Part shown: positions 1,234-58,445 of the stretch, piece by piece
Layout of the letters: each line of letters starts with the position of its first letter
How positions within the stretch are numbered: position 1 is the stretch's first letter
Assembly: GCA_965205265.1 (NCBI GenBank)
Contig: CBDBGH010000001.1
Span: 64,001-128,000 of the forward strand
From: Alphaproteobacteria bacterium
GTDB lineage: Bacteria; Pseudomonadota; Alphaproteobacteria; Bin95
Direction of reading: 5' to 3'
DNA: 64,000 bases
Notes under the pieces: model-generated
Told to the model about the DNA's origin: nothing
Databases searched by the model: none
Seen by the model: only the letters and a program-made list of their open reading frames with translations
Position numbers and translations under genes: made by a program

Positions 1234-4200
1234 TCACCCCCCGACACCCACGCCGACGGTGCGGTCCCGTCCGGGCGCGACGCCGACCGATCTCCCGATG
1301 GACCGATGCAGCGCCACCCAAGGCGCGTCCGCGGCGGGCACGACCTCGTGCAGCGACCTCACATTCAAGGCGACGGTTCCGGCGTCCGCGCCCCGCAGGA
1401 CATCCGGAACCTCGCCGTCCCGTCCGGCCGTGGCCATCGCCTTGATCTCGGAGGCCGTGAACGCGCCGTAGAGCCGCTCCGCGAGCACCGCGCGCTCCAT
1501 CCCCGGTTCGGGTGATCCGAGCGTGGCGGACAGGACATCCCGCTCCCGCCGAAGCGTCAGGACATCCATTTCCGGCCGCCCCTTTCCGAGCGCCGCCGCC
1601 ATCGCCTCCGCGGTCCGCTCCGGCCCATCCCCTTCGGCGGTCACAACCGCCGCCGCCACCAGCCGCTCCAGCGGAGTCGGGACGACCTCCCGTCCGGCGA
1701 GCCGCCGCGCGGCCTTTCCATGCCGGTCCCGCCATTCATCGACGAGCGCCGGATCGGCGTAGACGGGCTCCCCGCGGAACCTGGCCGTTTCGGCCGCGAG
1801 GGAACTCTCCTGTATCTCCTGGCTGATGGAGACACGGAGGTCGGCCTCCGCCCGCGCACGGGCGATCGTGCGGGCCATGGCGGTGATATCCGCCTCCCGC
1901 CCGGATCGTTCCCGCACGGCATCCTTCAGAAGGGCATGGATCGCGTCCTGAAGGCCGGGCCCGTGGACCGGACTGTCGGCGTCAGCCCTCCGGGTGACCG
2001 CACAGGCAAGCGGCAGCGCCAGTTCCCGGCAGTGACCCTCCGTCATGGCATCGTAGCTCCGTGAAACGGCTACGCCGGATCCGCCAGCGGGTGCCGGTCC
2101 GTCCCCGGCCCGCTCCCGCCCCTTCGCCCCGAGCGCCTGCGCCCTGCCCCGCCATGCCGCCGCCGCGCCCCTTTCCGCGGCGTAGCCCGCCACGCGCCGT
2201 CGGCGCCGGGCAGCGCCCCCGATCCCGAACATTCCGAGGGCGTCGCGGGCCACCTGCTCGTCGGATCCCTCCACCGAAGCGAGGATGCCACCGATGTCGA
2301 GACCCCGCCGCATAGGCCGCCTTCCCCTCCGCCGCCGACGTTCCCCGCTGCCGAACGGCAGGCCGTCCATGCCCCGCCCCTGCCCCGCTCCGCGGGCCTT
2401 CGGGGCGACCAGGTCATCCACCTTGCCAAGCATCCGCGCGATCTGGGCCCGCTGGCCGTAGAGCGCCAGTCCGGCGTCGAACAGGTCCGCCACCCGCCCC
2501 TCCCCGGCCGCCCGCGCCAGAAGCGCGCCGCGCGCCAGTATCCGGGCGGTCGTCATCAGCCGTCCCGAACTGTCCGTTCCGGCCGCCTCCATCGCCAGCG
2601 CGTCGGCCTGCGCGGGCAGATCCCCCGGAGCCCCCGCCAGCATACTGCGCCAGTCTCCCCGGTCGCTGAGCGAGTGGACATACCGCTCGACCCCGAGACG
2701 GTCGGCACCCGCAGGGGCGGCGCCATCCCGCAGGATCGCCGCTCCGATCACCTCCCCGAGCACCTCTCCCTCCAGCCCCGCGGCGCCGCGTCGGGAATCT
2801 CGACCGACGAAAGCCCCGCCATGGACCGCAGGCGCTCCACCGCCGCCGCAACGCGGCCGGCCGCCGGATGGTCCACCGCGGTGACGTACCCCCTCAGCGC
2901 CTCGCGTCCGGCGAGCGCCGGCGCGAATCCGTAGTCAAGGGCGCTTCGGGCGGAGGCGTCCCGACGGAGGATCCGCGACAGCACCTCAAGCTTCCGGCCT
3001 TCGGCGGCCGGGACGACCACGTTCAGGTCGGTTCCATGCAGGTTCATGGCCGACACCAGGAGCTGGCGGTTCATTCCTGGAGAGGCGAGGAGATGGACGC
3101 TCTCCGGTCGACGGCCCAGCTCGCCGTGGATCGTTCCGGCGAAGCTGAACCGCCACTCCGGCACCCTGTCGCCGGGACGCCACACGACCTCGCGCGCGGA
3201 GGCGCCCGCACCGATCTCCATCAGCAGCGCCCCGCCGTCCGTCCTGCCGACCAGCACCGCCTCCTCCCCTGCCCGGACAAAGGGGCCGCCCTGCTCGGTC
3301 CGGCCCGCGCCGCCGAGCCGCCCGTTCGCCGTCAGGAACCTGATCCTGTCGCCCGGCCGCAGGTCCTGGAAAAGCCCTTCGGTCCCGTCCACCCACGACC
3401 TGCGGTCCTCGCGTTCATGGTCCAGCCTTCTGCGGATCGCGGAGGTGAGCGCCGCGACCTCGGCACGCGACCAGGCCAGCGCCACCCTGTCCCGACTGCC
3501 GTCCCGTACATACGCCTCGGCCAGGACCTCGACCGCCTTCCGTGGGGTCGTGCCCGAGACGATGACGCCCTCGGCCTCGAGTGCTGCGAGCGCCCCTTCC
3601 GCCGCGACACCGCCCCGGGCCAGATCGGAGAGTGCCAGCGCCCGTTCCGGCGCCCTGCCGAACACCTCGTCGAGCCTGGCCGCGCCAAGGCGGACCTCAA
3701 GGGCCCGGAACACCGGTCCGGCGGCGGGCGGCGCCTGCATGCCACCGTCGACCATGGCGACCAGCCGGGCACCGCTTTCCTCCACCATCCCAAGCAGCCG
3801 CCCCGCCTGCTTTCCCGCGAGACGCCCGGCGTCATCGAGAACGATGACGGTCCGCCGGTCCAGTCTCACATGACCGGCCTCGGCCCTGTTCAGGAACGCC
3901 CGCACCGACCATGGATCGGCGATCCCGGCGTCCCGGAGCGAATCGAGGCCGGCCCCTGTCGGCGCCAGTCCGACCGCCTGCCATCCCGCCCGGCCGTAGG
4001 CGTCCAACACCGCCGCCGAGACGCGGGTCTTGCCGGTGCCGGAGTCACCCCTGACCAGCCGGAGCCGCCCCGGCGACACGGCATGGTCGAACGCCATCGA
4101 CTGCGCCTCTCCCAGCCGCGCCCGTTCGTCAGGCGTCAGCGGGGCCGCGCCGTCCGGCTGTCCGTAGGGCGCCCCGCCGAGAGCCAGCCTGACGCCCCTG

Positions 4201-7200
4201 TCGACCGCCTCGAGATCCGTCGCGATCTGGTCCCGTCCCGTGTAGACGCGGCCCTCCCCGTGCAGGCCGGTCTCCGAGAGCACCAGAAGATCCGGATGGG
4301 CCATCGCCCGCAGGAACAGCCGCAGGAACGTCTCCGGCTCCGCCACCACCCTGGCCAGACGGTCGGCGACCTCGTCGGCCCGGAGGACGGACTGTCGTTC
4401 CAGCAGGTCGTCGACGATCCGCTGTGGCTCCAGGGCGTAGTCGCGCGGATCATCCCCGACCGGCGGATCACCTTCGCTCCAGCCGGCGGAGAGCAGGCCG
4501 GCGTACCGCTCCGCCGCGCCGATGAGCGCGGTGTCGCCAAGAACGCCGGACGGCCGCCGGGCGGTGTCGTCGCCCATCCAGTCGAGCCTGGCCCCGACCC
4601 CGACGCTCTCCGCAGCCGTTCCGGAGGAGGGCCATGCACGGTCGGGAACGTCCGGGAGGCCGGTGGAGAGGTGGCCGGGCACGCTGGCCAGCCTGCGAAG
4701 GTCACCCTCGGTCTCCAGATGCCGTCGCCGACCGAACACCCTGACACTCCTGCGGTGGCGCGTGAGCGCAACATAGACCGCATGCCTGTGCAGCCGCGCA
4801 TGGCCCAGGACCAGGGCGTGGTCAACGGTGAGTCCCTGCGCCTTGTGGACCGTCGCGGCGAATCCGCGGTCGAGGTCGCGGAATTCGGAAAGGTCGATCG
4901 TGACGGTCCGCTCCATCCCGTCCATGCTGACGTCGATGGACCCCTCCCGTGTCGAGGTCACCGTTCCGAAAGCGGACCGGGGCAGTTCCAGTTCCCTGTG
5001 CGGACGCGTCAGCATGATCCGGTCACCCACACCCAGATCCAGCGCGACCGGGGTTCTCCGGGGCGCCGTGCCCGACCGGTCGATCCGGTCGATCGACCCG
5101 TAGCTGCGGACCGTGTCGCGGTCGATCACGCCGCGCCGGAGCGCCTCGGCGCGGATCCTGTCGTTGAGCGCCCAGACATCCCGGTTCGAGTATCCCATCG
5201 CGATGCGGCTCTCATCCACCCCGCCCCCTTCGAAATACTCCGCCGCCAGCGCCGCCACGGGATCGGAAAGCACCCGTCCATCCAGACGCAGCGCACCCTG
5301 TCCCGCGTAGTGGCCGATGGCCAGTCCGGCCTCCGGACCGCCCTCCGCCAGCCGCCCGCTCGCGATGCGGTCGCCCGTGCCCTCCTGCCGCACGACCTGG
5401 CTGACGGTCACCGATGGCCCCGCCCCGCGCTCGGCCGGATGCCAGCCCGCGATCTCGGCGACGGGCTGCAGCTGCTCGGGGTCGCCCACGGCGACCAGCT
5501 TGCCACCCAGTTCGGCGATCCGGTCCTGGATGCGCAGCCACTGGGCGGCACCGACCATGCCGGCCTCGTCCATGAAGACGACGAACCGGCCCGGCGGAGG
5601 CAGGTCGCCCCTCGCCCAGCGGGCCTCCCACGCCGCCAGCGTGGCGGCCTTCATGCCCCGCACGCCGCCGAGTTCCTGGACGGCCTTGCCCGCCAGGGCG
5701 GTTCCCATCACCTCGAAGCCCCGCGACCGCCAGACCCGCGCCGCCTCGGCGACCGCGAAGGTCTTGCCCACCCCCGCGTGGCCCTGCACCATCGTCAGCC
5801 GGGACGGCGAGAGCATCGCCGCCGCCGCGGCCCGCTGTCCGGCATTGAGGTTCCCCGAAAGGGCCCCGGCTCCCGGCAGGGCCGGATCCAGATCCAGAAC
5901 CGACCCGGCGAGATCGCGCGCAGCGGCGGCGAGGCTCTGTTCGGCGGCGGCACGGGCCGCCGTGACATACTGCGGGGGCCCGTCCGGTGTCGTACGCTCC
6001 AGCTCGATGAGTTCCGGATGCGCCATCGCCCGGTCGCCAAGCTCCAGTATCCGGTCCCGCTCCAGCGACCCGCCGAGCCGGACTTCCAACGCCCCCCGGA
6101 CGTCCGCTTCCGTGAAGACGGCCTTCTGGCTCTGGACGACGATCAGGATGTGTTCCGGACTGTCGGCGAGGAACCGCCGGTTGCGCTCCCTGACCTCGGC
6201 GGTCCTGTCGCTCTCCCGCGCCTCGCCGTCTCCGGCCCGGGCATGGGCGGCGATGTATGGATTGTGGGACTCCGGCTCCAGCAGGAGCCCCCGGTCCCGG
6301 TTCGACCGGTGGTCGACCCGCTCCACGAAACCCTCGCGGGCCAGCGCCACGTTGACATGCGCCGCCCACGCCTCCCGCCACTCCTGGAGAAGGGATCGGG
6401 AATTCCAGGCCCGGACCTTCGCGCCCCATCCATCGTCGCCCAGCCCCCTGAGCGTCAGCATGACGTGCGCATGGGGATTGCCGTCGCCCTTGTCGTGGAT
6501 GACCCAGTCGGCGACCATGCCCCGCCCCGTGAACGCCTCGGCCACGAAGTCCCGCATCAGCCCGATCTGCGAACCGCGGCCGAGTTCGCCGGGAAGCGCG
6601 ATGGTCAGGGAGCGCGCGAGCTGCGCCGTCCGGAATTTCGTGTTGACCGCACGTTCCCTGTCCTGAACCCCGTTCCAGAGCCGTTCGGAGAGCTTCGCCC
6701 AGACGGCCCTTTCCACCGCATCACCCGCGACGGCGGTCCCGTCGCCTCCGGGCGGCGGCGGTGCGGGAAGACGATCGATCTCCATCCCGATGGCCCGGGC
6801 ATGCGGTGTGCGCACCGCCCAGTCCGGCGCTCTCTCCAGAAGCCTGCCAAGCCCGGCCCTCACCGCCTCGGCCGACACGGATCCGCTGACGTCCTCGCCG
6901 GTGGCGGTCAGCGTCGCTTCCAGCGCGTTCGGCCCGAAGTGCTCCCTCGCCCAGTGAGGTCCGGTACCGGTGGCGTCGTCCAGGACATCCATCACCGCGG
7001 CGTAGGCGTCCGCCGTTCCGCCATCCGGTCCGTTTCCATCCGGCGACATCTCAAGGGCCGCGGCCTCGAACGCGCTGGTCCCGAACGCGGTCTCCGCCCA
7101 GGCCGGGGCGCCGTCCGGCAGCGCGATTTCCGAATGGATCAGCTCGCCCGCCTTGACGGAGTGGTTGAGGGTCCGGGCGTCCTGCTCGGACCGCATGACG

Positions 7201-7286
7201 GCGGCGTGGCGGTAGGCGGCGGACGCCACAGCGCTCCCGCCCGTGCCCCGCGAGATGATTCCGACTGACAGCCTGAAGATCGCCAT
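1234..7286 (-). CDS. traA: TraA-type MOBQ relaxase with two RecD-like helicase domains and a long C-terminal region; split by a 1-nt frameshift near 2776 (ORFs 2748-7286 and 1234-2763)
   Basis: MAIFRLS...SAVASAAYR, NPHAHVML, RVDHRS; Walker A GHAGVGKT and GDSGTGKT; DEAGMV; ATVHKAQGLTVD. One extra G in the G4 run near 2776 joins the two frames (RG-LEGEVLGEVI). Confidence 0.9.
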
Positions 7287-7305
7287 GGCGCCATTCTACA
7301 GGCCG

Positions 7306-7341
7306 CATCAAACTTTGCAAGTTTGATGTATAAGCGTGCCT
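7306..7341 (+). other. Putative MOBQ-type oriT
   Basis: Perfect 10-bp inverted repeat CATCAAACTT-tgc-AAGTTTGATG followed by TATAAGCGTGCC (resembles the RSF1010/Ti nic region TAAGTGCGCCCT), about 20 bp upstream of the traA start. Confidence 0.65.
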
Positions 7342-7425
7342 GAACCGGAATCCGTCGGCTGCGCGCGCCGGATTCCGGATTCCGCGCCGCCAGCGCGGAT
7401 ATGGCGGCTGGCGCTTCTCCGCACG

Positions 7426-7515
7426 AAATGCGAAAGATCTGAATCATGTGAATGATATGCATGAGTCGAATCATATGAATGTTGTGAATGAGTCGAATGA
7501 TTCACGACATTCGAC
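7426..7515. promoter_or_regulatory. AT-rich array of YGAAT repeats; partly duplicated in inverted form at 11259-11321
   Basis: tgaatcatg, tgaatgata, cgaatcata, tgaatgttg, tgaatgagt, cgaatgatt at about 9-10 bp spacing. Confidence 0.6.
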
Positions 7516-7538
7516 TTCGCCGACCGAAGGAGTGAAGG

Positions 7539-7763
7539 ATGCGCGAAATTCCCCTGTCAGACATCCACCGCCGAGCAGGTGACGTCCTCGAGATCGCCGA
7601 GGCCGGACCCGTGGCGCTCACACGCTACAGCCGCGCCCGCTTCGTCCTGATGAGTGCCGATCACTACGAAACCCTCGGCAGTGCCGACGATGCAACGGAC
7701 GTGACTGCCGTGGCGGAAGTCCCGAAGGAGGCGGAGGTACCCGCCCAGCCTACCCTTCTCTGA
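7539..7763 (+). CDS. Orphan Phd/YefM-like antitoxin or DNA-binding protein
   Basis: SDIHRRAGDVLEIAEAGPVALTRYSRARFVLMS matches the Phd N-terminal fold; RBS aaggag; no toxin downstream. Confidence 0.7.
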   Translation: MREIPLSDIHRRAGDVLEIAEAGPVALTRYSRARFVLMSADHYETLGSADDATDVTAVAEVPKEAEVPAQPTLL

Positions 7764-7944
7764 CGGCCTGCCGGATTCCGCCCATCGGCACCGAAGCGGG
7801 ACCTTCGGAAGTTCCGTTCGCAGTCATTGATGCGGTGAGTCTAATGTGCTGGCGGTTTCGCGGATCTGATGGCTCAGGCGCGGATCTTTGGATTTCCGGC
7901 GCTGTTCGGGCGAGTGGTCACGTCGGAGACGCCAGGAGGCATCG

Positions 7945-8733
7945 CTAGTCCCGGTAGTTCCGAACCGCGTCGTCATCCAGCCTGTCGTGGGGTACGAGGC
8001 GGTAATGGCGCTCTTCAGCAACCCTGACCTCATCATTCTGGAGCGTGAGTTCGAAAAGCGCGATCACCTGATCCTTCATGAACTGCGCCGCCACCGCCCT
8101 GACCATCATTCCCGGGAATCTCTGCTCGGCGAAACGGAGATCCTGCGTGGTCTGGACAATGCCGATCTGGTCCTTTCCACCCTTGACCTGAACAGGAATG
8201 ACGTAGTGGCATCCACGCCTGTCGAGTCCGACATAGAGTTCGTCTATCTCGATCTGGCCCACCCCTCTCACAGTGGTTCGCAGATGGTTCTGGAGACTGT
8301 AGACCGTCAGTCCGAGAAAGGTGTCAATCAGCCGGTTGTACCGCACGACGGCCAGCAGCGCCTGCTCATCGTCAAGCGCATACTTGCGGATCATCTCCGG
8401 CGTCGCGTCCGGAATGTCGGCAACCGTGAGATCATCCCGCGGCAGGATCCGGGTTTCCCTGACCAGCCTGAATCGATACCGTCCCTTGCCCGCCCCCTCG
8501 ATCACCCATTCGCGTCCCTGCGGCTGGGTGTCCAGGATACTCTCCGGTAGCCTGTTGCGATACCGGAAGGAGTATGGCACATCGCCGACGTTCCTGACCC
8601 GCTCGAACCCGAGCGCGGCCGCGCCTTCCTCCAGTTCCTCCCGTACAACCTCGAATTCGGTCGTTCCATCGGCGTAGTGATCAAAGAATATCTTCTCGAT
8701 CAGAGCCTGATAGCGGTTTGGTCCCCTAGCCAT
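7945..8733 (-). CDS. Putative type II restriction endonuclease (PD-(D/E)XK-like)
   Basis: Intact 262-aa ORF just downstream of a C5 MTase; GQIEIDELYVG...PVQVKGG motif. Confidence 0.65.
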   Translation of the reverse strand: MARGPNRYQALIEKIFFDHYADGTTEFEVVREELEEGAAALGFERVRNVGDVPYSFRYRNRLPESILDTQPQGREWVIEGAGKGRYRFRLVRETRILPRDDLTVADIPDATPEMIRKYALDDEQALLAVVRYNRLIDTFLGLTVYSLQNHLRTTVRGVGQIEIDELYVGLDRRGCHYVIPVQVKGGKDQIGIVQTTQDLRFAEQRFPGMMVRAVAAQFMKDQVIALFELTLQNDEVRVAEERHYRLVPHDRLDDDAVRNYRD

Positions 8734-8761
8734 GGGCCACCAGATGCCCGTCCATCTCGCG

Positions 8762-10057
8762 CTAAATGTCGATTTGTCTGCGCTTACGGACCCCGCTTTT
8801 CCTGTCCCGGCAGCCGGGAGGCGGCTTTACACCGAAGTGCCGAGAGGCAGCGGAACGGTCGAAGGTCAGGAATGCCGGATCTCCCAGAACCACGCCTTGC
8901 TGCGGACGGGGCGGTGTCAGGCCAAGGGCATCCACTATGCTTCCGGCCAGCGCTCGCACGAGTGGAGGTGGAACGGCGTTTCCGACCTGCCGTGCACCAT
9001 GCCACTTGGTGACGTGCAGACGGAACCAGTCGGGAAATCCGTGCAGGCGCGCCATCTCACGAACCGTGATGCAGCGGGCGTGGCGGTAGTGAATCGGCCG
9101 TGGACTGGTGAAGGCGCCGCGCGCGCCGTCCGTACCTGCCCGCAGTGTGTTGGACACGCCATCCTGCGGAAGCCTGAAGAACCGGCTGATCGGTTCAACG
9201 GTGCCCGGTACCGTCATGCCGAAGCGCCGCCTTGAAATCTCGGTATGCTCCGTGCGGGCACTTGACGTGAGGAGTGTCGGCGTCCATTCGCGAACATACC
9301 CACTGAACCAGGCGTCACCCGGTATGCATCGCAGGGTTGCGGCGTAAGCCGACGGATCGCCGTAAGACGTGGTCGACACCGAATCCGATACCAGCAGGGT
9401 ACGGAAACGCTCTGCATCGGGCAGGTCTGCCAGTGCGTCAGCGCAGCTTGGCCCGTCAGGCAGATTCCCGTAGGTCCTGGGTCTGCCTCTGATGTTGGTG
9501 GTCGGATCGGGATATTCAGGTAGAGGCGTTCCGTTCCTCGCACCGACAAGGATCAGGCGTTCGCGGTTCTGGGGTGTGCCGTAATGTCCGGCGTTCAGAA
9601 CGCGCCACGGGGTGCGCACCCGGTAGCCGACCTCCGAGAATGCCGTCACCAGCTCATCAAGAATCTATCTATGTCTACCGACCGTAAGGCCCTTGACGTT
9701 CTCGAAAACGAAAGTCCGTATGCCGAGTTCCGAAACGATGCGTACGAAGTCCCGGACCAGTCGGTTGCGGGGATCGTCGAGCACGCGCTGGCCGATCAGC
9801 GAGAATCCCTGGCACGGTGCCCCGCCGAAGACACAGTCCACTTCCCTGTCTCCGATCCCTGCCATCATGCGGATGTCGTCACCACTCAGCTTCTCCACTG
9901 AATGTGGCACGGTAACCGTGTCGGGAAAATTGAATTTATGTACGGCACAGTGCACCGGGTCGATCTCGACAGCGGCGCGGACATCGAACCCCGCCTGCTC
10001 GAATCCCAGGCTCAGCCCACCGACTCCGGAGAAAAGATCTATGCCGGTTGGCCTCAT
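8762..10057 (-). pseudogene. DNA (cytosine-5) methyltransferase with an in-frame TAG at 9665-9667
   Basis: DLFSGVGG, GAPCQGFS, ENV, QNRER, RLHGFPD, QVGNAVPP; the two ORFs share a frame (GRHR*ILDELVTA). Confidence 0.9.
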
Positions 10058-10408
10058 GACGCCATGTCTCCGTCCCTGCTGAGGCTGGCGTTATCACGAA
10101 CACATTTCGTATGTCAAACCATTGCGTACCCTAAATGTGGCTTTGCCGAAGATGGGCATCCGAACCACCCCCTCGCTGGTTCCACACCACGGGAGTGCCG
10201 GTCCCTCCCGGAATTACGGAAGCCCCGGGACTCATATATTATCCTTTCGTCTCGTCTTGAGGAGTTCCGTACACTACGGAAACCTCGGCATATGCACCTG
10301 AACAACTGAGGGGAAGGGCGGGGATGCGGAAGGGTCCCGGAGATTTCAGTGGTTCGGCTGCTGCCCTGATGGCTGGCATCAGTCGGCGCTGCAGCTCGGT
10401 TGCCGCAA

Positions 10409-11032: not shown

Positions 11033-11047
11033 GGTGACTGCCACGGA

Positions 11048-37174: not shown

Positions 37175-38428
<1,254 letters not shown>

Positions 38429-49121: not shown

Positions 49122-49148
49122 GTTCACCTCCGAAATCCATCTGGCTAT

Positions 49149-49186
49149 GTGACCGCTCCCCGTCCTTCAGGACGGGGAGCGGTCAC
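49149..49186. repeat. 38-bp palindrome (REP/PATE-like), copy 2
   Basis: GTGACCGCTCCCCGTCC-TTCA-GGACGGGGAGCGGTCAC. Confidence 0.7.
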
Positions 49187-49465: not shown

Positions 49466-50719
<1,254 letters not shown>

Positions 50720-51155
50720 CGCCCGGACGGACCGCCGCGGTCCGGCACCGAAACGAATCACCCGCGGGCCGGCCGGGGTCTCCCCGGCGGGCGTTTCCGG
50801 CGTGCCCGGATGGCACCGCCTGTGGGGAACGCTGTGGAAAGGTCCGGGACAGCCGGACGCGGAGCCCGGAAAAAATGGAAAAAAAGCCGGATCCGGGCTT
50901 GAATTCCAATATGGATGCTCTCCCCTGCGACGGCAAAGGCGATGGAGGGCGGCCGCCTCCTCATGGTCCGCCGGTCCAGTCGGAGCGGTCAGCGGAGGTC
51001 GCGCAGATGCCCCTCGTCCCTGGCACCGGCAAGAACCTCCATGCGAATGGCGTCACAGACGGCGATGTCCGCCCCAAGGACCTTTCCGACACGCTCACAT
51101 ACCGGTGAACCCGTGTCGCGGAGGAATTCGATCCATGCGGACGTGTCGACCGGTA

Positions 51156-51359
51156 TCACGCCGTCCGGCCAGTCCGCATCTCTTCGAGATCGCCTTCCCA
51201 GCCCGCTCCCCGCATGCCGCGGGCCCTGTCGAGGCCGAGCCGCTCAGCCGCCGCCGCCCGCAACGCGAAATTGATGGCATCCCGCTTTGTCTTCAGGCAG
51301 TAGCGATGCATGACCGCCGCGCAGGCGTCGTCGTCGATATTCACGTTTGTGCGGGCCAT
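51156..51359 (-). CDS. vapB: VapB antitoxin
   Basis: MARTNVNIDD...TKRDAINFALR...GWEGDLEEMR; GTGA overlap with vapC. Confidence 0.85.
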   Translation of the reverse strand: MARTNVNIDDDACAAVMHRYCLKTKRDAINFALRAAAAERLGLDRARGMRGAGWEGDLEEMRTGRTA

Positions 51360-51564
51360 GTGCCAAACATGCACACACGAGGCAACCGTGCAAGCCGTTT
51401 CGATCCTGCTTCAGGCATGCAAAGGTCCTCTGTCGTTTGCGAAGTCCGGGTCACTCCACCTGGATACTTCGGCATATTCCCGTGACCGGTCCGCCGACGA
51501 CTTCGGACCTGGGATCATTGAGATCAAGCGCCCCGGACACAGACCTGGTACAGCACCGCGGTGT

Positions 51565-52560
51565 CTACGCCGCGGCGACCGCGAGTCCGGCGGAGCGGGC
51601 CCGCTCAGGCCGCAGCGCCGCGCCGAGCGCCTCGTAGTGGCCGTACCAGGGGGCCGGCGTTCCCAGTCGGGCGCCGTGCAGTTCGGCGATGCCCGCGGCG
51701 ATCTCCCCGGCCTTCGGGCCGTGGGCGGCGCGGAACGCCGCCGTGACGCGGCCCTCGGGCTGCCCGGCCATGGCGCGGATCTCCGTCGCGGAGAACGCCC
51801 TGTAGAGCCTGGTGGCCGTCCGCTCCCTGTCGCCGTCCTCCAGCTGCCCGGGCGAGGCCATGCTCCTGATGAGTTCCTCCCGTTCCCGCTGGAGGTCGGC
51901 GGGCGCCAGCGGCGGCGAACCGTAGCCGAGCGCCTCGGCCATCGCCTTTCCCAGAAGCCTGTCCCGGTCGGTCGTGGCGGCGGCCTGGGCGGCGGCGGCA
52001 AGCCTCTCAAGCCCCGTGGGCTCCGCTTCCTTTCCGGCGGCGCGCCGGATCCCCTCGGCGTGCAGCGCCCGCCACTCGTCGAGTTTCCCGTGCTGGATGA
52101 AGAACGGTTCCCCCTGGAAGCGGGCCGTCTCCGCCGCGATGGCGTTGTCGGGATCGAGCCGGGTGACGGCGTCCACGCGGAGGTCGGCCGCCGCCCGGGC
52201 CGCCGCGATCCGCCTAGCCCCGTCCATCCCGCGCCCGTCCATCGGCCGCCCGTCTGAGGCGAGCACCCGGACCAGCTCGCTCTCGAGGTCCATGCCATGG
52301 ACCGGGTTCGCCGAATCCACCCGCTCGGTTACGAGGCACGCGAGCAGGCGGGCGGTGGTCCCGTATTCGCGGACCGCGTCGGCGCGCTGCCGCCGGCGTT
52401 GGGTTTCCGCATCGGGTTCCGCCAGCGCCGCCGTCCGACGCGGTGGAGGGGCAGGGGAGGCGCTGCGGCCCGCGCCGGTCCGTCCCTGCTCCCACCATCT
52501 TCCGGGAGGGACATCGGCCCAGGTGTGGATTTCCCGCCGCTCCCACTCCGCCTCCCGCAA
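51565..52560 (-). CDS. HTWADVPP-motif protein fused to a TraA C-terminal-like domain
   Basis: AAETARFQGEP...DEWR...PTGLERL...RLYRAFSATEIRAMA...APW aligns with the last part of TraA; RBS ggagg, TTG start. Confidence 0.8.
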   Translation of the reverse strand: MREAEWERREIHTWADVPPGRWWEQGRTGAGRSASPAPPPRRTAALAEPDAETQRRRQRADAVREYGTTARLLACLVTERVDSANPVHGMDLESELVRVLASDGRPMDGRGMDGARRIAAARAAADLRVDAVTRLDPDNAIAAETARFQGEPFFIQHGKLDEWRALHAEGIRRAAGKEAEPTGLERLAAAAQAAATTDRDRLLGKAMAEALGYGSPPLAPADLQREREELIRSMASPGQLEDGDRERTATRLYRAFSATEIRAMAGQPEGRVTAAFRAAHGPKAGEIAAGIAELHGARLGTPAPWYGHYEALGAALRPERARSAGLAVAAA

Positions 52561-52566
52561 CGCCTC

Positions 52567-53037
52567 CTAGCGCTCGATCCAGCGGTTGAGCGCGGCCATC
52601 GCGCCCGGCAGGGACTGGGCGAGGAACCGGCCCTCGTCCCGCGACAGCGGCATCACCGTCAGCCCCCGACCCGGTGCCGCCGAGTGGAAGATCAGTTCGG
52701 GAGTCCCCTCGGCGACGGAAACGCACAGGCGCACCTTCGTCTGGCCAAGGTCGGCGTCGGTGTCCCATGGAAGGTCGGCTGGGCCGTCCGCCCGGGCGGA
52801 CCGGTCGCTGGCCTCCGCGCCGGGCTGGCTCCAGCTCCCGGCCGCCGCCACGGCGGCCGGCAGGGCGTCGGCGAGGAAGCCGGATTCCTCGAGCGACAGG
52901 GTAACCGACCGCTCGCCGCCGACAGCGGCCGAATCGAACGCCATCCCCGCCCCGCCGTCCCCATCGACGGCGCGGAGGCTAAGTCTGGTGCCGCCGATAC
53001 TGGCCTGTGTCTTCCATCTGAAGGTGTCCGCGTCCAC
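52567..53037 (-). CDS. Hypothetical protein with a tandemly duplicated small domain
   Basis: SLEESGFLADALPAAVAA and SRDEGRFLAQSLPGAMAA; RBS gggagga. Confidence 0.65.
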   Translation of the reverse strand: MDADTFRWKTQASIGGTRLSLRAVDGDGGAGMAFDSAAVGGERSVTLSLEESGFLADALPAAVAAAGSWSQPGAEASDRSARADGPADLPWDTDADLGQTKVRLCVSVAEGTPELIFHSAAPGRGLTVMPLSRDEGRFLAQSLPGAMAALNRWIER

Positions 53038-53057
53038 CGCGTCCTCCCTTCCGTTCC

Positions 53058-53342
53058 CTACGCCGCTGCGCCGCCGGACTCCGGCGGCCGGTCGGGCCCC
53101 GTATGGACGGCCATCGCCTCCGCCAGCGCCTTCCCCCCCTCCACGAACATCTCGATCGTGAACCGGAGCGCCTCGGGTTCCGAGGACTCCACCGTGAAGG
53201 TGCATCTGTGGCAGGTGGCCTCCACACCGTCGAACGCCCCCCCATGGCCGATGGCCAGCGCCGTCTCGACGCCCTGGCCGTCGCAGATCGGGCACCGGCG
53301 CAGGTCCGCGGGCCACAGGGCGATTTCGTCCGGGTCGTTCAC
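53058..53342 (-). CDS. Small zinc-ribbon protein
   Basis: CPICDG...CHRC; GTG start after ggaga. Confidence 0.55.
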   Translation of the reverse strand: MNDPDEIALWPADLRRCPICDGQGVETALAIGHGGAFDGVEATCHRCTFTVESSEPEALRFTIEMFVEGGKALAEAMAVHTGPDRPPESGGAAA

Positions 53343-53439
53343 GATGTGTTCTCCGTTCCATTGGGTTCGTACACGTCGTGATCCCGGTCCGCAAGGCCCT
53401 CCGGCCGCGCGTTCCCGACCTGTCCTGCCTTCGCGATGG

Positions 53440-53675
53440 AAATGGCCGACCCCGCGCTTCGGGGCGAAATCCCGTGAGACCAGAAAATCCAGATTCTCCG
53501 ACAGCCGTGGCGAGCCCCAGGACAGGTGCAGGTTGGTGCCACCATGGAAGACGACATGGTCCAGCGACAGGGTGGCGGACATCGACAGGGCATCGATGAA
53601 CAGGACATGAAGCATGGAGGTCCAGTTCCGCGCCTCGTCCTCCTCCAACGGGCGCCGTTGTTTACGGATGGCCAT
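53440..53675 (-). pseudogene. AbiEii-like nucleotidyltransferase 5' fragment
   Basis: FHGGTNL...PRLSENLDF (canonical SEDLDF). Confidence 0.7.
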
Positions 53676-53870
53676 GAAGCTTTTTTCCTAACATATAGGT
53701 TAGGTTATTGAGACCAGCGGGAACCGGAAATCCCCGCCGTCAGCTGGTCTGCCACAGGCCCTGCATCCGTGCTGCGGATATCCCCGGTCCCCGGCAACAG
53801 CCTGACCGACCGGTTCCTCTCCGCGTTGGTATGGGGAGTGGACGGCTTTGCGTTTCGGTGTGGAAATGGG

Positions 53871-54104
53871 CTATAGTTCCAGCGCCTTGCGCAGGAGCGC
53901 GTTCGCCCGTGTCTGCCATCCGCGGCCGTCGGCCTTAAGGTGATCGATGACGTCAGGGTCGAGCATCATGGTAACACGGCGCTTGCGCTGGCCGGGTGGC
54001 ATGGGAGGCCGCCCGGGGCGGATCGCATGCTTCAGGTCCGCTTCGGTGATCTCACGCACCTCGCCGTCCTCGCCGACCAGCGGCGCCCGTTCAGTGCCCT
54101 TCAT
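53871..54104 (-). CDS. brnA: BrnA antitoxin
   Basis: GRPP...K.RVT.MLDPDVI...GRGWQTRANALLR. Confidence 0.9.
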   Translation of the reverse strand: MKGTERAPLVGEDGEVREITEADLKHAIRPGRPPMPPGQRKRRVTMMLDPDVIDHLKADGRGWQTRANALLRKALEL

Positions 54105-54357
54105 GGATCTTCCTTTCCCGTCTGTTCGCCCTTCTCATGGAGATCACGCGAAGCGCGTCTCCCCGGAACGTGAACGCCACGACGACCACAAGGTCGTGCA
54201 GGCGGCCAAGGCAGACCTGACGCCTCTCGCCGTAGTCCTTCCGCCCATCGTCGAGGATGATCGCCGTTTCCCAGTCGATCAGCGCCACATCGGCGAAATC
54301 GAGGCCGCGCTCCCGCAGCGTCGCCTGCCGCTTCGTTTCGTCCCAGTCGAGCTTCAT
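54091..54357 (-). CDS. brnT: BrnT toxin
   Basis: WDETK...RGLDF, DYGERR, RVISMRRANRRE. Confidence 0.9.
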   Translation of the reverse strand: MKLDWDETKRQATLRERGLDFADVALIDWETAIILDDGRKDYGERRQVCLGRLHDLVVVVAFTFRGDALRVISMRRANRRERKIHEGH

Positions 54358-54433
54358 GGAGTTGTTATATGCATATTAAATCAGGTCTGCAAGCGCCCAG
54401 GGAACCGCATGGCAACTCCAGGTGTTGCGTCAC

Positions 54434-54530
54434 CCATATTTTTGCCACCCGCGGTTTTCAATCCCTTGATTCCGAGCAATAAAAAATATAGACTGGCCGA
54501 CCTGCTCTCCACCGGCACTCGCCCCGCTTT
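54434..54530. repeat. Non-coding element repeated at 58644-58740
   Basis: ccatattttt.ccacc.gcggtttt...ttgatt...aaaaaatat...gacc.gc.ctccacc shared by both. Confidence 0.6.
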
Positions 54531-54784
54531 TCCACAGCTTTCCGACCGAATTCGCCAGTCCGGCAGGAGATCCAGACCGGAACGTCCCGGTTTCTTGGCG
54601 CTTCACCCGCCCGCTCTGATCCCGGAAAGGATGTCCGGCGAATCAGTCCCGTCCCGGACAGCCCCTTGACGTCGGCGCATATCCTGTCCAGACTGGCGTC
54701 ATGATTTCGGTCGTATCTTTTCTTATTCCATCCCCGCTGCTATCGCGGGCCGCGGCTCGCGCTTCAGTGACGGAGACACCTGAC

Positions 54785-55030
54785 ATGCGCCGTCCGCGCA
54801 TCCTGGCGATGGTTTTGCCACTGGCTCTGGCACTGGCGACGGGTGCCGCCCGGGCGGATCTCAACCGGCTGGAACGTCTGGCGGTATATCAGTCCGGCTA
54901 TGTCCTCGACCACGACCATCTGCGGGCGGTGTTCTACGCCCCTCAGGGCATGTTCTGGATACTGCCTCCGGAGGGGACACAGGCTTCCCACAGGTTCTTC
55001 GAGGTGCTCCGAACGGAACGCTCGTTGTGA
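54785..55030 (+). CDS. Small exported protein or fragment
   Basis: Signal peptide MRRPRILAMVLPLALALATGAARA. Confidence 0.45.
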   Translation: MRRPRILAMVLPLALALATGAARADLNRLERLAVYQSGYVLDHDHLRAVFYAPQGMFWILPPEGTQASHRFFEVLRTERSL

Positions 55031-55322
55031 CAAAGCGGCGTTCCGCGATCCAGGCGCGAGCCAACGCGGCAGGATCGGGTCAACACTGATGGATGTGTTC
55101 GCCCTCCTTGTCGGTCTGGTCGCTGGAGGGCTGGCTTTGCGCAGCGACGACAACGGGTCAGTGCCGGATAGAGCTTCAAGTGAGCCGACGGAGGCACCAA
55201 TCCCCGCCACGCGGCGGCGTGATCAACCAACTTGGGCTACACCCATTTGCGAATGGCGGCTTGACCCCCCCCCCCAATAGTGCAGCACTGGGATCGCTGA
55301 CTAGGGTAAGGGGCGAGATATT

Positions 55323-57365
55323 ATGGATTTCCGAATGGCATTCGCGGGGTTTGTCCGCAAGGCCGCCGCGGCGGCCTTCGTGGTGGCGGTGGCGGCAGTA
55401 TTGTCATCTTGCGGCGGCGGGGGAGACCTGCCGACCCCACAAATCGATTCTCAGCGCGCTTCGGCACAAGCTCAGCTGACTGCCTTGCGGAGCGCCCACG
55501 GAGAGGCCGTCCGGGCTTTGGCCCGGCTGAAGACCGGCACAGGCGCCGCCACCCGAGCGGAAATCGCGGCCGCCGAAGCGGCGGTCCGGGCGCTGGACGC
55601 CGCGCTCGCGGCGGCCGTGGATGTCGCTGGCGCGGACCGCGCTCGGTACGGATCGACCCAGCTCAAGGCCGATCTGGCGGCGGTGAAAGCCGAGGCGCGG
55701 GAAAACATCCGGGGGCAAGAGGATGAGAGGCGACGCCAGAGACAGGCGGCGGCAGTTGATGCGGCCGCGGAGGCATTGAGTGATGCGTCTGAGCGTCTGC
55801 GCAGCCTTGGCGACAATGCGAGTTATGCGGAGATCACTGATGTCGAAACCGCGTTGGCATACCTGGAGACTCAAATCACCGCCGCCGCCGATTGGTCAGA
55901 TGACGCAAAGGATAGTTGGCGCGCGCCATTAGCAGGTGTAAGGCCCCGGCTTTCACGTCAAAGAGCGGCGTTGCTGGCAAGAACGCGCGCAAGAGACAGC
56001 TCTCGGAACTTTCGTCCAAGGGAGCGAGGGTGGTCCTATGGTCCGGCTTGGCAGCATAAGTCACCCGCAATCGACGACTTGTCCAGAGTTTCCAGTCGCG
56101 GTGGCATTGAGATCCGATCAGGTCGTTGGCGCGACCGGCAAGGTCGGGACGGCAGCGTCAGCGCCGCCCGATTGGCCGAATATTTCAACTCGGTTGCGCG
56201 GGTTGAACTTCGGGAAGAAGGTGATGTGATCAGGGCTAGGGATTTCGGCTCCTACAGGCGTGTCCGAGTGAACGACAATGCCACATCAGAGCAGCGTGCC
56301 GCTCTCGATAGAGCGATACAAAACATCAACGAAGTGCTGCCGTATGAAAAAGAGCTACGGCGGGGTTCGGATATCCCACGATTAATCGGCCCGATCAGCG
56401 GCGACGATTTGTATGACAGCCTCAAGGATGGAGAGATTCATATACACTTTACGGACGGACAACGGAACTGGCCGTACGATTGGGACAATTACGATGCCGC
56501 GGGCTTCGGCGGCGTGCAGACCACCTGTTTGGACCAGGATTGTTTGCAGACAAGGATCAAGACGGGCTATGCCTTAATTGACTGGAGCACTCGAAACGAC
56601 AAGGACGATCTTGTCACGCATGAGCTGCTCCATGCTCTCGGGATCTCAGGTCATGTCGAAGTCAGCCGCTTTCCCGACGCGATCCTCGCGCACCAAAACC
56701 AGGACGGCACCACATTGGATGTTTCCAGCACCGTGGAAGGAAAGGTCCTATTGGCCATCGCGACGAACCGGGTGGCGAACGGCACCCGATGGGCCGATGT
56801 CACTCCATCCAGCTTCGGGAATTGGGAGCGGGATGCGTTCCATCTCCTCGGCTGGGCGGACACCGGCAACGGGAGCGGAGACATCCAGTTCGGGGTCAGC
56901 TGGGCGAACGGACTCGCAACACCCTGGGCATTCGGCCATGCGAGACCGACTCGGCGGCTGCAAGACAATGCCGCATTCGGCGGCCGCGCCACATGGAACG
57001 GCGTTTTGCTGGCCGTCGACACCAAGGGTGAAGGTTCGGGCCGTACTGTGGCTGGCGACACCGAGATTTCGATTGAATTTTCGTCCCTCCAAGGCCGGGC
57101 GGATTTCACCGGGTTGGAATCCTGGTCCCCAGGAAGCCATCCGGGAACAGCCGCCAACGGCGAAATCTGGGGAGACGGCGACCTCGGATATTCCATCGAA
57201 GTACGCAATCAGGGTGATTTACAGTTCTTTTCCAGCACCAACGTTTCGTCAGCGGATGACCCGGGCGTTGTCAGCGGTTTGTTTGTTGGAACATCCCACC
57301 AAGGCACGACGGGAACCCTCGAGCATCCCGGGCTGATTGGCGCCTTCGGAGCTCTTCGGGAGTGA
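55323..57365 (+). CDS. Lipoprotein with a metzincin-type Zn-protease motif and a TbpB-like C-terminal beta-barrel
   Basis: Lipobox LSSC-GGGG, coiled coil, HELLHALGISGH, C-terminal VSGLFVG..HQG..GTL...LIGAFGA.R. Confidence 0.75.
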   Translation: MDFRMAFAGFVRKAAAAAFVVAVAAVLSSCGGGGDLPTPQIDSQRASAQAQLTALRSAHGEAVRALARLKTGTGAATRAEIAAAEAAVRALDAALAAAVDVAGADRARYGSTQLKADLAAVKAEARENIRGQEDERRRQRQAAAVDAAAEALSDASERLRSLGDNASYAEITDVETALAYLETQITAAADWSDDAKDSWRAPLAGVRPRLSRQRAALLARTRARDSSRNFRPRERGWSYGPAWQHKSPAIDDLSRVSSRGGIEIRSGRWRDRQGRDGSVSAARLAEYFNSVARVELREEGDVIRARDFGSYRRVRVNDNATSEQRAALDRAIQNINEVLPYEKELRRGSDIPRLIGPISGDDLYDSLKDGEIHIHFTDGQRNWPYDWDNYDAAGFGGVQTTCLDQDCLQTRIKTGYALIDWSTRNDKDDLVTHELLHALGISGHVEVSRFPDAILAHQNQDGTTLDVSSTVEGKVLLAIATNRVANGTRWADVTPSSFGNWERDAFHLLGWADTGNGSGDIQFGVSWANGLATPWAFGHARPTRRLQDNAAFGGRATWNGVLLAVDTKGEGSGRTVAGDTEISIEFSSLQGRADFTGLESWSPGSHPGTAANGEIWGDGDLGYSIEVRNQGDLQFFSSTNVSSADDPGVVSGLFVGTSHQGTTGTLEHPGLIGAFGALRE

Positions 57366-57624
57366 CTCGATAGTCGATCAATGGCTGGGCCCAGGTCGGA
57401 ATCTTTGGTCGGGGCAAAGTGTATCATTCCGAGTCCCATTGGAAGAACCCAGCCCAGCGGCCGTTCCCGACAGGCGTTGACGAGACAGAGCAGCATCCGC
57501 GTCCGCAGCCTGTCCGCGATTGCCGGGACAGCCGAGACGCACGAACCCAAACCGTCCTTGCCCCCATATCTCAAGCATCGGCAGGACAAACTCGCGGCGA
57601 ACAGGCACCGCCCCAATGATTCTG

Positions 57625-57875
57625 ACGTGTACCCCCTTTCCAACCTTGATGCGCGCCGCAGCCTCGCGAACGGCAAGACCTTTTTCGATCGGCGTCTTCG
57701 CCCGTGCCAGTCTTTCAGCCGTGACGACAGCCTTGCGTCCACCTTTTCTTTCGCGCACGGCGGCGGCACCCAGGCCAGCGCGAGTTCTCTCCCGGATGAG
57801 GTCGCGTTCGAACCGGGCAAGGGCACCGAACAGGTGACCCATGCCGCGGTCCGGGAGACCGGCGGTGGTGGGTAT
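57625..57875 (-). pseudogene. Serine resolvase C-terminal fragment
   Basis: LFGALARFERDLIRERTRAGL.AA..R.RKGGR...AAARIKVGK. Confidence 0.8.
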
Positions 57876-58445
57876 TCCGAGGCCAGGGCACAGTTCGAGG
57901 GGAACCCGGACTATCCGGAGATGGATCGCCAGGACGCCTACGAGGCTGCCATCCGGGACGGCCTTCGCCGCCTCGACGAAACTGTACCCGTTCCCTCGGA
58001 GACCGAGCGTCGCGTGGCGCGCGCCGTGGTCGCGACACGGGGCACCGGGCGGCACGGGCTGGCGCTGGCCCCTGCGCAGGCGCTGGAGCGTGGGACGCCG
58101 CCGACCGCGGACAGCATCCGTAGGGAGCGGGATGCCGTCATGGGGCAGCTGCGGGATGGCACGGAGATTGTTGACCCATACGAGGGGCGGCCGTTCCTGC
58201 GACGGGTCTACCGCAGCTACATTGCCGCGGAGACCATCGAGATGTCGGAGGGGAGGGGACAGCTCCTCCGGCGCCTGGCCGACGGCGCGTCGCGGACGCG
58301 GGTCCGGGATAGGCTGTTGAGCCTGCACCGCGACGTCACCTATCCGGAGGCGTCTCCCTGGCGCCGACACCACGATGCCATCGCCCGCGCGGCCGGACTG
58401 GACCACCGCCACGAACGCGGCCTCGGCGTGGAGACCGACCTCTGA
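57876..58445 (+). pseudogene. 5'-truncated gene ending in the TraA C-terminal-like domain
   Basis: AQFEGNP...PSETERRVA...RRERD...RVYRSY.AAE...SPW.RHH...RGLGV. Confidence 0.65.

Follow-up and report, generated by a model that had tools for sequence, protein, structure and literature searches.

Introduction

To our knowledge, it is clear for just a few model plasmids which proteins accompany the DNA in conjugation, and no portable domain signal other than BID has been described on both relaxases and cargo. The TSA and TSB signals of the F and R1 relaxase TraI are large folded recognition elements within the relaxase and not short peptides; they are internal to TraI, and we know of no portable versions of them on other cargo. 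Both signals are mentioned in PMC6509941.

The BID domain (PF17841; structures 4YK1, 4YK2 and 4YK3) is a C-terminal module with a basic tail behind it. PMC6509941 and PMC5675462 describe its carriers as alphaproteobacterial Ti-type TraA relaxases, some of them with two copies, and toxins or effectors (FIC, PezT/Zeta), and they describe a link to VirB/VirD4-like type IV secretion systems (T4SSs); the BIDs of toxins are thought to be relaxase-derived. Fusions of PezT/Zeta to BID and the transfer of primases serve as precedents (PMC5675462, PMC6509941). The VbhT protein of the Bartonella schoenbuchensis plasmid pVbh combines a FicT toxin with a relaxase-derived BID and is translocated during conjugation (PMC5675462, PMC6509941). 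Another described signal, the XVIPCD of the Xanthomonadales X-Tfe effectors (PDB 7MU9), occurs as a conserved domain at the C-termini of many T4SS effectors that are otherwise unrelated. According to PMC8740702, it has an alpha-alpha-beta-beta-beta fold of ~117 aa with a Gln-rich tail and binds the all-alpha domain of VirD4, and the disordered tail that follows it is needed for secretion.

Here we analyse a window of 64,000 nucleotides from the 193-kb plasmid contig C1 of an alphaproteobacterium, in which the C-terminal domain of a TraA relaxase recurs on other genes (Table 1).

Results

A TraA domain repeated on plasmid C1

The preliminary description of this window held that the last ~190 residues of TraA match the C-termini of two other open reading frames. 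BLASTP upheld the homology but not the length: the TraA C-terminal frame (509 aa) is 39% identical to ORF 51565-52560 on the minus strand over 263 aa (E 2e-35) and 33% identical to ORF 57381-58445 on the plus strand over 184 aa (E 4e-11), while the two extra copies are 29% identical to one another over 189 aa (E 7e-10). The domain measures ~265 aa, about 263 of which are common to TraA and ORF 51565-52560, and the fragment copy is shorter (~200 aa, HMM positions 67-266). As also described, all three copies end in an Arg-containing tail, ...GRDRTVGVGVGG in TraA, ...RPERARSAGLAVAAA in the 331-aa ORF and ...HRHERGLGVETDL in the fragment ending at 58445, and this tail recurs throughout the domain family.

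Table 1. Positions of the features discussed, numbered from the first letter of the window
Feature	Position	Strand	Basis or remark
traA body: MobA/MobL relaxase and two AAA_30 helicase modules	2748-7286	-	1512 codons, stop at 2748; Pfam/NCBIfam
Reading-frame change in traA, present assembly	2775-2778	-	alignment to P0046
3' part of traA in the other frame, bearing the domain	1234-2763	-	509 codons
TraA C-terminal domain, 265 aa: 12 predicted helices and Arg-containing tail	1237-2031	-	HMM E 1.6e-105
2xN-family putative cargo gene, ~490 codons: two ~65-aa N-terminal repeats, linker, domain	51565-53037	-	homologues P0004, P0005
In-frame TAG; homologues have Arg or Gln there	52567-52569	-	homologue alignment
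Domain copy of the putative cargo gene, 266 aa	51568-52365	-	HMM E 4.2e-123; BLASTP to TraA C-terminus E 2e-35
Resolvase remnant adjoining the debris break point	57378-57830	-	PF00239, only last 28 profile positions, E 0.0013
3' debris of Fic-domain fusion gene	57842-58632	+	last ~200 domain codons (57846-58445) and 187 bp downstream

The traA body is a Ti-type relaxase, scoring 639 bits against TIGR02768 (TraA_Ti; curated cut-off 590.45), and its matches to PF03389 (E 3.4e-48) and PF13604 (E 1.6e-55) identify the MobA/MobL relaxase and RecD-like helicase parts. In the present assembly no single intact frame runs through to the end of the C-terminal domain. The homologue P0046 (1976 aa, 68% identical) spans the frame change, its residues 1-1459 matching one frame and 1459-1961 the other. 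The distance from the start at 7286 to that at 2763 is 4523 bases (2 mod 3). A length difference of one base makes this a single frame, and near-identical contigs from three public runs of two studies carry one extra base behind 2775. Either a recent mutation or an error of the assembly may thus lie behind the frame change. No RNA run was listed among the matching sequencing runs.

ORF 51565-52560 proved to be the 3' portion of a longer gene cut by the in-frame TAG, with full-length homologues in P0004 (488 aa, 62% identity) and P0005 (473 aa). The N-terminal part, which aligns with P0004 at 69% identity, has no Pfam or NCBIfam match, and a poor AlphaFold2 model built from four sequences (pLDDT 57.9) gives two beta-meander-plus-helix repeats. 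We considered whether an AbiEii fragment upstream of this gene is the remnant of an AbiEii-domain fusion and rejected this for want of BLAST similarity to P0021, P0022, P0025 and P0044. A plasmid-borne suppressor that reads through two in-frame TAGs was likewise rejected, as C1 has no tRNA gene.

The 791-bp fragment at 57842-58632 is 97.7% identical to C1:139288-140078, the 3' end of an intact gene at C1:138089-139891 whose product carries a Fic domain (PF02661, E 2.6e-18) and the motif HPFx[DE]GNGR (HPFQDGNGRISR). Judged by sequence, the fragment is a remnant of this Fic fusion and not traA debris. The fusion has a homologue, P0036, which is 60% identical over the full length (615 aligned columns), and bears an N-terminal TxxxEG-like stretch, IETGQIEG, which we take to be a candidate class II inhibitory motif; no small VbhA-like gene was seen upstream of it.

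With the initial query, five domain copies were found in the genome, all on C1 and none on the 5.46-Mb and 43-kb contigs; a profile search added one further short piece, part of traA debris. Two of the five lie outside the window, and one of these, on the Fic fusion, is the sole intact copy on C1. The other four are broken or out of frame, two of the five being 3' debris beside resolvase genes. The plasmid is rich in IS. With traA out of frame in the assembly, a nonsense codon in the 2xN gene and two debris copies, the system looks decayed in the present strain.

Carriers of the domain

An HMM of the domain, as the preliminary description had proposed, was used to search 1.84 billion representative proteins and to list N-terminal partners. 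It found 144 carriers at E≤1e-3 (48 at E≤1e-30). Among the 87 proteins that reach the profile end, the domain stops within 20 residues of the C-terminus in 77, and the final 30 residues carry a net positive charge in 57, no net charge in 18 and a net negative charge in 12; the recurrent tail motif is R.R(S)RG followed by a hydrophobic residue. The partners in the 60 matches with more than 100 upstream residues form 17 BLAST clusters. Scanning of cluster representatives identified two unrelated relaxase families, MobA_MobL (including giants of 3.2-4.0 kaa) and one TrwC relaxase; AbiEii (a cluster of 4), HepT (2), NTP_transf_2/HEPN and Fic; and ArdC (2), DnaG primase (2), ankyrin, YhgA-like (3) and AAA_16 (2) proteins, and several N-termini belong to no family. 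On comparative evidence, the domain is grafted onto the C-termini of non-relaxase proteins, as had been proposed. In eleven matches, the terminal copy is preceded by a shorter internal one (~140 aa, without profile positions of about 46-127).

The preliminary description had allowed that the extra copies might turn out to be mere traA debris with no conserved non-relaxase architecture. Such architectures are conserved in P0004/P0005 (2xN), P0036 (Fic) and the ankyrin protein P0009 with its counterpart in genome G003, so this is not the case. It is accordingly very improbable that the copies are functionless products of traA recombination scattered by IS and resolvases. The two debris copies beside resolvase genes and the IS load of the plasmid would fit that explanation, but these architectures are full-length elsewhere, the window fragment stems from the Fic fusion, and the domain keeps 20-40% identity across the 144 clusters.

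On a quickly built tree of 68 copies of the domain, the relaxase label must change at least 10 times over well-supported branches. Several cargo copies have a relaxase copy as their sister, and the Fic and TraA copies of the plasmid fall in different clades. Two genomes of the same order, G003 and G025, bear the domain. It was found in none of 400 other sampled genomes of the class, for which only four candidates were scored per genome, nor by tblastn in 72,556 PLSDB plasmids, and megablast of traA against PLSDB gave no match; the sample behind our reading therefore consists mostly of metagenomic proteins without genomic context. An ESM Atlas look-up returned no usable match to the domain, and we found no description of it in the literature, mostly at the level of titles and abstracts.

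Comparison with known signal domains

The AlphaFold2 model of the TraA domain comprises 12 helices and no beta strand (pLDDT 93.4, pTM 0.89). The structural comparison with BID that had been called for gave no BID among the listed matches and no clear match in the PDB; the best hit of the domain profile to PDB sequences was an unrelated protein (E 0.12). No Pfam or NCBIfam model matches the domain. PF17841 (Bep_C_terminal) was not among the matches of the three window copies (E≤0.1) or of 25 other domain-bearing proteins, and a six-frame search of the whole genome gave nothing on C1 at E≤10 and three chance-level matches on C3 (E 0.24-1.4). As a positive control, PF17841 detected the traA of p1METDI (E 3.2e-7, 27.8 bits). 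Conversely, the domain HMM had no match on p1METDI at E≤10, and hhalign gave a probability of 0.2% each for the domain against the p1METDI TraA C-terminus, the Fic protein of that plasmid and an alignment of 15 TraA proteins. The earlier statement that the domain is not recognisable as BID therefore holds. By sequence the domain is a family of its own, with neither a BID nor an XVIPCD match, and by predicted fold it is without a clear solved relative. It is a self-contained, all-helical C-terminal module of ~265 residues with a short Arg-rich tail ending in Gly and hydrophobic residues.

Like BID, the domain lies at the C-terminus and has a basic tail behind it (77 and 57 of 87 proteins for position and net positive charge, respectively), and its carriers are relaxases and toxins or effectors linked to a VirB/VirD4-like T4SS. 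It differs from BID in showing no sequence or profile similarity to it; in size and predicted fold (~265 aa and 12 helices, against about 100 aa and a four-helix bundle with a hook); in its wider range of partners (TrwC relaxase, DnaG primase, ArdC, AbiEii, HepT, ankyrin, YhgA-like, AAA_16); and in its occurrence, which in our searches was confined to a narrow set of genomes and metagenomes. The domain might instead be a genuine BID that has diverged strongly, with a BID-like core and an inserted helical sub-domain; its function would then be the same, but the family would not be new. We consider this unlikely, while noting that position, tail, hosts (relaxases and toxins) and T4SS type are those of BID (PMC6509941), that BID domains are described as very variable, with about 14% similarity between those of relaxases and Beps (PMC6509941), and that the ~140-aa internal copies are nearer to BID in size, relaxases with a short internal and a terminal copy recalling the BID1 plus tBID2 arrangement (PMC6509941).

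As in VbhT, a plasmid Fic protein has the same C-terminal module as the TraA of the plasmid. However, the BID of VbhT is virtually identical to that of its TraA (PMC5675462), whereas the Fic and TraA copies here are only ~33% identical and belong to different clades. The XVIPCD is not known from relaxases and has beta strands, ~117 aa and a Gln-rich tail, while the present domain is all-helical in the model, has Arg-rich tails and occurs on relaxases as well. With TSA/TSB it shares the character of a large folded relaxase element; the present domain is portable, and no structural match to these signals was listed.

Linkage to a T4SS and a coupling protein

C1 bears VirB4-like, VirB6/TrbL, VirB8 and VirB10/TrbI genes, and its coupling protein (PF02534, E 1.6e-39) is encoded at C1:175022-177220. 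The Rhodobacter metagenome-assembled genome (MAG) G435 encodes a coupling protein 75% identical to that of C1 and has seven full domain copies, three of them in tandem and one ~42 kb from the coupling-protein gene; within 10 kb of another, IS elements and a DprA-like gene are present but no T4SS gene is. A related-locus search starting from the domain returned only two loci, both in one Rhodobacter MAG. Two further coupling-protein homologues lie on contigs of exactly the same size as those of domain-bearing proteins (120,092 and 336,933 bases). Among the 36 other genomes of the order, no close homologue of the C1 coupling protein was found at E≤1e-20; G025 has only a 277-codon T4CP-like frame.

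Alternatively, the domain may not be a secretion signal and may instead serve in docking or regulation, holding enzymes at the relaxosome, on the strand being transferred or at a common partner within the donor, for example a chaperone or an antitoxin-like inhibitor. The transferred DNA is what primase, ArdC and relaxase work on, most T4SS signals are much smaller than this domain, and the G435 copy remote from T4SS genes would suit such a role. However, ankyrin, Fic, AbiEii and HepT proteins have no obvious need of transferred DNA, a strict C-terminal position with an Arg-rich end is a hallmark of T4SS substrates, and the same partner set is documented for BID (PMC5675462, PMC6509941), which leaves the docking role, in our view, quite unlikely.

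Discussion

We suggest that the domain probably represents a new family of T4SS substrate-recognition modules resembling BID. Domain and tail would form a translocation signal with the role that BID and its basic tail have in Bartonella and Rhizobiales; the signal would dock the relaxase and the other carriers on the coupling protein of a VirB-like conjugative T4SS, and the docked protein would be sent into the recipient cell during mating. We infer this binding and transfer from the homology of the copies, their C-terminal position, the diversity of partners, the presence of several copies per element, the linkage to a T4SS and coupling protein in two genomes, and the interleaving of relaxase and cargo copies on the tree. 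The N-terminal partners are exactly the classes known or proposed to pass conjugative T4SSs: relaxases, primases, ArdC and toxin-antitoxin toxins.

Several observations weigh against translocation: the tail is not net-positive in 30 of the 87 proteins; no close coupling-protein homologue came up in the 36 other genomes of the order (E≤1e-20), and no T4SS lies within 10 kb of one G435 copy; and the plasmid copies are divergent (33-39%), with the Fic copy in another clade and four of five copies broken. Since the plasmid cargo copies are only 33-39% identical to the TraA copy, one coupling protein would have to accept divergent versions of the signal.

A broader version of this reading is possible, and we put it forward only tentatively: the T4SS recognition domain may have a fold with no relation to that of BID, XVIPCD or the TraI signals, and its presence alone may define the injected protein set of a clade of alphaproteobacterial conjugative elements, comprising relaxases of two families, primases, ArdC, at least four toxin families, ATPases, nucleases and several proteins without an assigned role. 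The ankyrin-repeat carriers hint that some systems also deliver into eukaryotic cells.

If the domain is a translocation signal, it would be a second, independent domain with a BID-like distribution, and the grafting of a relaxase signal would be a general route to interbacterial effectors. Genomes could then be read by sequence for the proteins that are delivered (144 clusters already), and the domain could serve as a new tag with which to send proteins through systems of the VirB type. The partner list, with its anti-restriction proteins, primase and toxin-antitoxin toxins, would then fit ideas on the establishment of plasmids in new hosts and the addiction of those hosts.

Copies of the domain in TraA and in cargo genes

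The preliminary description proposed that the last ~190 aa of TraA recur on two other ORFs in the window. In BLASTP searches, the TraA tail matched ORF 51565-52560 (39% identity over 263 residues, E = 2e-35) and ORF 57381-58445 (33% identity over 184 residues, E = 4e-11), and the two ORFs matched each other (E = 7e-10). These matches show that the similarity is real, although in the first ORF the shared stretch is longer than proposed. No Pfam or NCBIfam model matched any of the three copies at E ≤ 0.1.

The start of the traA body and that of the ORF for its last part differ by 4523 bases (2 mod 3); a single additional base would therefore unite them in one frame of ~2,000 codons. The metagenomic relaxase P0046 (1976 residues) is 68% identical to the body and 56% to the tail, its alignment spanning the junction with a frame change at 2775-2778. 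Contigs of three public runs (two studies), ~99.3% identical to traA, have one extra base behind 2775; a fourth run has no coverage there. Given this single frame across the junction, the domain is the C-terminus of TraA, and the frame break seen here stems either from a recent single-base change within a run of Gs or from faulty assembly. No second traA body was found on the plasmid contig (C1).

The second copy belongs to a cargo family (2xN) whose members P0004 (488 aa, 62% identity) and P0005 (473 aa) carry two ~65-residue repeats at the N-terminus, followed by a linker and then the domain. Window 52570-53037 encodes the 2xN N-terminal part, 69% identical to P0004 and in frame with the 331-codon ORF; between the two lies a TAG at 52567-52569, a site occupied by Arg or Gln in the homologues. 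Window 51565-53037 is therefore a conserved non-relaxase architecture, here interrupted by a nonsense codon. In-frame TAGs where relatives have Gln or Arg were seen in two of the five plasmid copies (the other within C1:22565-23341); both fit C-to-T changes, and no tRNA genes were found on C1. The two TAGs may be a coincidence or may reflect selection against toxic cargo. Toxin-antitoxin genes on either side of the cargo gene mark the region as a toxin-antitoxin patch. In the ORF directly upstream of the 2xN gene, the match to AbiEii is confined to the first ~43 profile positions (E = 7.7e-6); its remainder is unrelated, and no similarity was found to the AbiEii-domain fusions from other sources.

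The third copy derives from a Fic-fusion gene that is intact elsewhere on C1. Its Fic domain contains HPFQDGNGRISR and is followed by the shared domain, an architecture matched by P0036 (60% identity, full length). The copy of its 3' end in the window breaks off beside a resolvase remnant and is debris of this cargo gene, not of traA. The extra copies are thus more than plain traA debris, in line with the preliminary description. Both 3' debris copies, of traA and of the Fic gene, adjoin resolvase genes or remnants, suggesting that they were made by site-specific recombination. Immediately upstream of the Fic fusion lies an AAA_16 ATPase gene that lacks the domain; it resembles the N-terminal part of AAA_16 fusions in a Rhodobacter MAG (G435) and in P0030 (30-33% identity, E = 4e-41 and 5e-38). 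A 680-codon ORF at 55323-57365 has no Pfam match; its HELLHALG stretch looks like the HExxH zinc-protease motif.

C1 is 193,076 bp long with 65.7% G+C (the window being its bases 64001-128000), and the other two contigs of the assembly measure 43 kb and 5.46 Mb. Its coupling protein matches PF02534 (E = 1.6e-39), TraG-D_C and TrwB_AAD_bind; PF03135 gave no match on C1. A whole-genome search found five domain copies, every one on C1 and most of them damaged, and the profile picked up one short additional piece of traA debris. An IS110-family transposase gene is also present three times, with flanks 93-94% identical; one copy follows the Fic fusion at a short distance and another lies near the 2xN gene.

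Features of plasmid C1 (window coordinates unless prefixed C1) and partner classes of the domain, the latter from Pfam scans of cluster representatives
Feature	Position or representative	Strand	Details
traA body	2748-7286	minus	TIGR02768 (Ti-type TraA), 639 bits; MobA/MobL domain, two AAA_30 helicase modules
TraA last part, overlapping ORF	1234-2763		509 codons
traA 3'-end copy	C1:22451-23722		86% identical; in-frame stops; adjoins resolvase gene
Fic-fusion gene, intact	C1:138089-139891		600 codons; PF02661, E = 2.6e-18; outside window
Fic-gene 3'-end copy	57842-58632		791 bp, 97.7% identical; includes 187 bp downstream
Resolvase genes/remnants	57378-57830; C1:23738-24391		
VirB4-like, VirB6/TrbL, VirB8, VirB10/TrbI and coupling-protein genes	C1 ~166.9-177.2 kb		
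Uma2-family putative endonuclease	309-1061	plus	adjoins traA 3' end
C-5 cytosine methylase ORF	8762-9649	minus	only C-terminal part of profile matched
IS110-family transposase	37481-38428; 49772-50719; C1:141474-142421		315 codons; PF01548, PF02371
VapB-like antitoxin, solitary	51156-51374	minus	PF09957, E = 9e-9
ORF with partial AbiEii match	53058-53675	minus	
BrnT toxin and BrnA antitoxin	53871-54357	minus	PF04365, E = 4e-23; PF14384, E = 1e-16
680-codon ORF	55323-57365	plus	lipoprotein-like N-terminus
Type I restriction-modification genes	58937-63342	minus	HsdR-like (997 codons; HSDR_N, ResIII, T1R_D3); HsdS-like (Methylase_S)
AAA_16 ATPase gene	C1:136314-137720		outside window
MobA_MobL + AAA_30 relaxases			~1,900 residues
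Giant carriers	P0010		~3,000-4,000 residues; P0010 has MobA_MobL, DUF7146, Toprim and four AAA_30 in one polypeptide
TrwC-type relaxase	P0056		
AbiEii	P0021		cluster of 4
HepT	P0012		cluster of 2
NTP_transf_2	P0031		weak HEPN match
Fic	P0036		
ArdC (ArdcN + MPTase-PolyVal)	P0060		cluster of 2
DnaG primase	P0045		cluster of 2
Ankyrin repeats	P0009		
YhgA-like Transposase_31	P0039		cluster of 3
AAA_16	P0030		cluster of 2

A family with many partners

Eight copies were used to build a profile of 267 positions. Among 1.84 billion representative proteins it matched 144 at E ≤ 1e-3, of which 112 reached E ≤ 1e-10 and 48 reached E ≤ 1e-30. Most of the 144 clusters are metagenomic. With domain positions set by local hmmsearch, 87 proteins extend to profile position 250 or further; in 77 of them no more than 20 residues follow the domain, the ten exceptions continuing for 23-97 residues. 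Over the last 30 residues, 57 of these 87 proteins carry a positive net charge, 18 are neutral and 12 are negative; recurrent tails read ...HPERARSRSRG(M/L)G(M/L) or ...R.RG(I/L)S(I/L). Sixty matches have >100 residues upstream of the domain and fell, by all-against-all BLAST, into a relaxase-linked cluster of 30 and 16 other clusters. Among the giants, P0010 alone was scanned against Pfam, and P0029, P0034, P0038, P0050, P0058, P0061, P0064, P0078, P0088, P0098 and P0111 were grouped with it by BLAST similarity. The N-termini of P0019 (cluster of 5), P0004, P0055, P0059, P0130, P0007 and P0014 match no Pfam or NCBIfam family.

Within the window's order (37 genomes), two of the 36 others carry the domain, G003 on an ankyrin protein and G025 on a protein with a repeated F(T/S)xxEI motif. 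It was found in none of 400 other genomes sampled across the class and in none of 72,556 PLSDB plasmids.

Relation to BID and XVIPCD

The Pfam BID model (PF17841, Bep_C_terminal, 97 positions) was absent from every Pfam scan of domain-bearing proteins and had no six-frame match on C1 at E ≤ 10; the TraA of the control plasmid p1METDI, which bears BID, was detected at E = 3.2e-7. Reciprocally, the domain profile found nothing in p1METDI, and hhalign gave a 50-sequence domain alignment 0.2% probability against each of three targets: the C-terminus of the p1METDI TraA, the Fic protein of that plasmid, and an alignment of 15 TraA proteins that bear BID. The domain therefore fails the sequence tests for BID, in keeping with the preliminary description, which did not recognise it as such. 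An AlphaFold2 model from the 50-sequence alignment has 12 helices (pLDDT 93.4, pTM 0.89), with no fold match to BID among the matches listed. The domain may still hide a BID-like core inside a larger fold, an option kept alive by shorter internal copies that lack profile positions ~46-127 in eleven matches, usually upstream of a full terminal copy. XVIPCD was rejected as an identity: PMC8740702 describes an alpha-alpha-beta-beta-beta fold with a Gln-rich tail, clearly different from the 12-helix model.

A putative secretion signal

Two papers (PMC5675462, PMC6509941) describe VbhT as a FicT toxin with a relaxase-derived BID domain that is translocated together with pVbh. They also place PezT/Zeta-BID fusions next to VirB/Dtr loci and present BID plus a basic tail as a bipartite signal whose proposed binding partner is the coupling protein. 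VbhT is an exact precedent for a relaxase-derived signal on a toxin, and here a Fic protein carries a domain also found on TraA. Since the partners (relaxases, primases, anti-restriction proteins and toxin-antitoxin toxins) are of classes known or proposed to pass conjugative T4SSs, a T4SS secretion signal is the best reading of the domain and, judged from sequence comparisons, a fairly probable one. Its terminal position, tail, multiple copies per element and linkage to coupling-protein genes fit this reading, as does the confinement of every copy in the genome to a T4SS plasmid. As for linkage, the coupling protein of G435 is 75% identical to that of C1 (one TGA within the match), and this MAG contains seven full domain copies, three in tandem genes and one ~42 kb from the coupling-protein gene. 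The domain closes each of the tandem genes (G435:C16:35387-42403, loci L035-L039), which look like an effector island. Of the three, one begins with an AAA_16-like part (by similarity to P0030 and the C1 gene), another includes an extra short internal copy, and the remaining one has a short N-terminus. Two more coupling-protein homologues come from contigs whose lengths equal exactly those recorded for a primase fusion (120,092 bases) and a giant relaxase (336,933 bases), which suggests, short of proof, that the contigs are shared.

A maximum-likelihood tree, built by a quick search from the 68 copies covering at least 225 profile positions (shorter matches excluded; SH-aLRT supports only), interleaves relaxase and cargo copies and places several of the latter as sisters to relaxase copies. 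Well-supported branches force at least 10 label changes, a score as low being reached in 61 of 500 shuffles.

Other observations weigh against a secretion signal. Across the order's 36 other genomes, no close homologue of the C1 coupling protein was found, though two of these genomes carry the domain, and G025 has only a truncated T4CP-like frame. One G435 copy, surrounded by IS elements, has no T4SS genes within 10 kb. Most copies on C1 are damaged. Further, the cargo copies on C1 are only 33-39% identical to that of TraA, and the Fic copy falls in a different clade from the TraA copy. On balance, the comparative evidence supports the proposal of a putative translocation module distinct from BID, and the domain is a new, rare family that is BID-like in behaviour.
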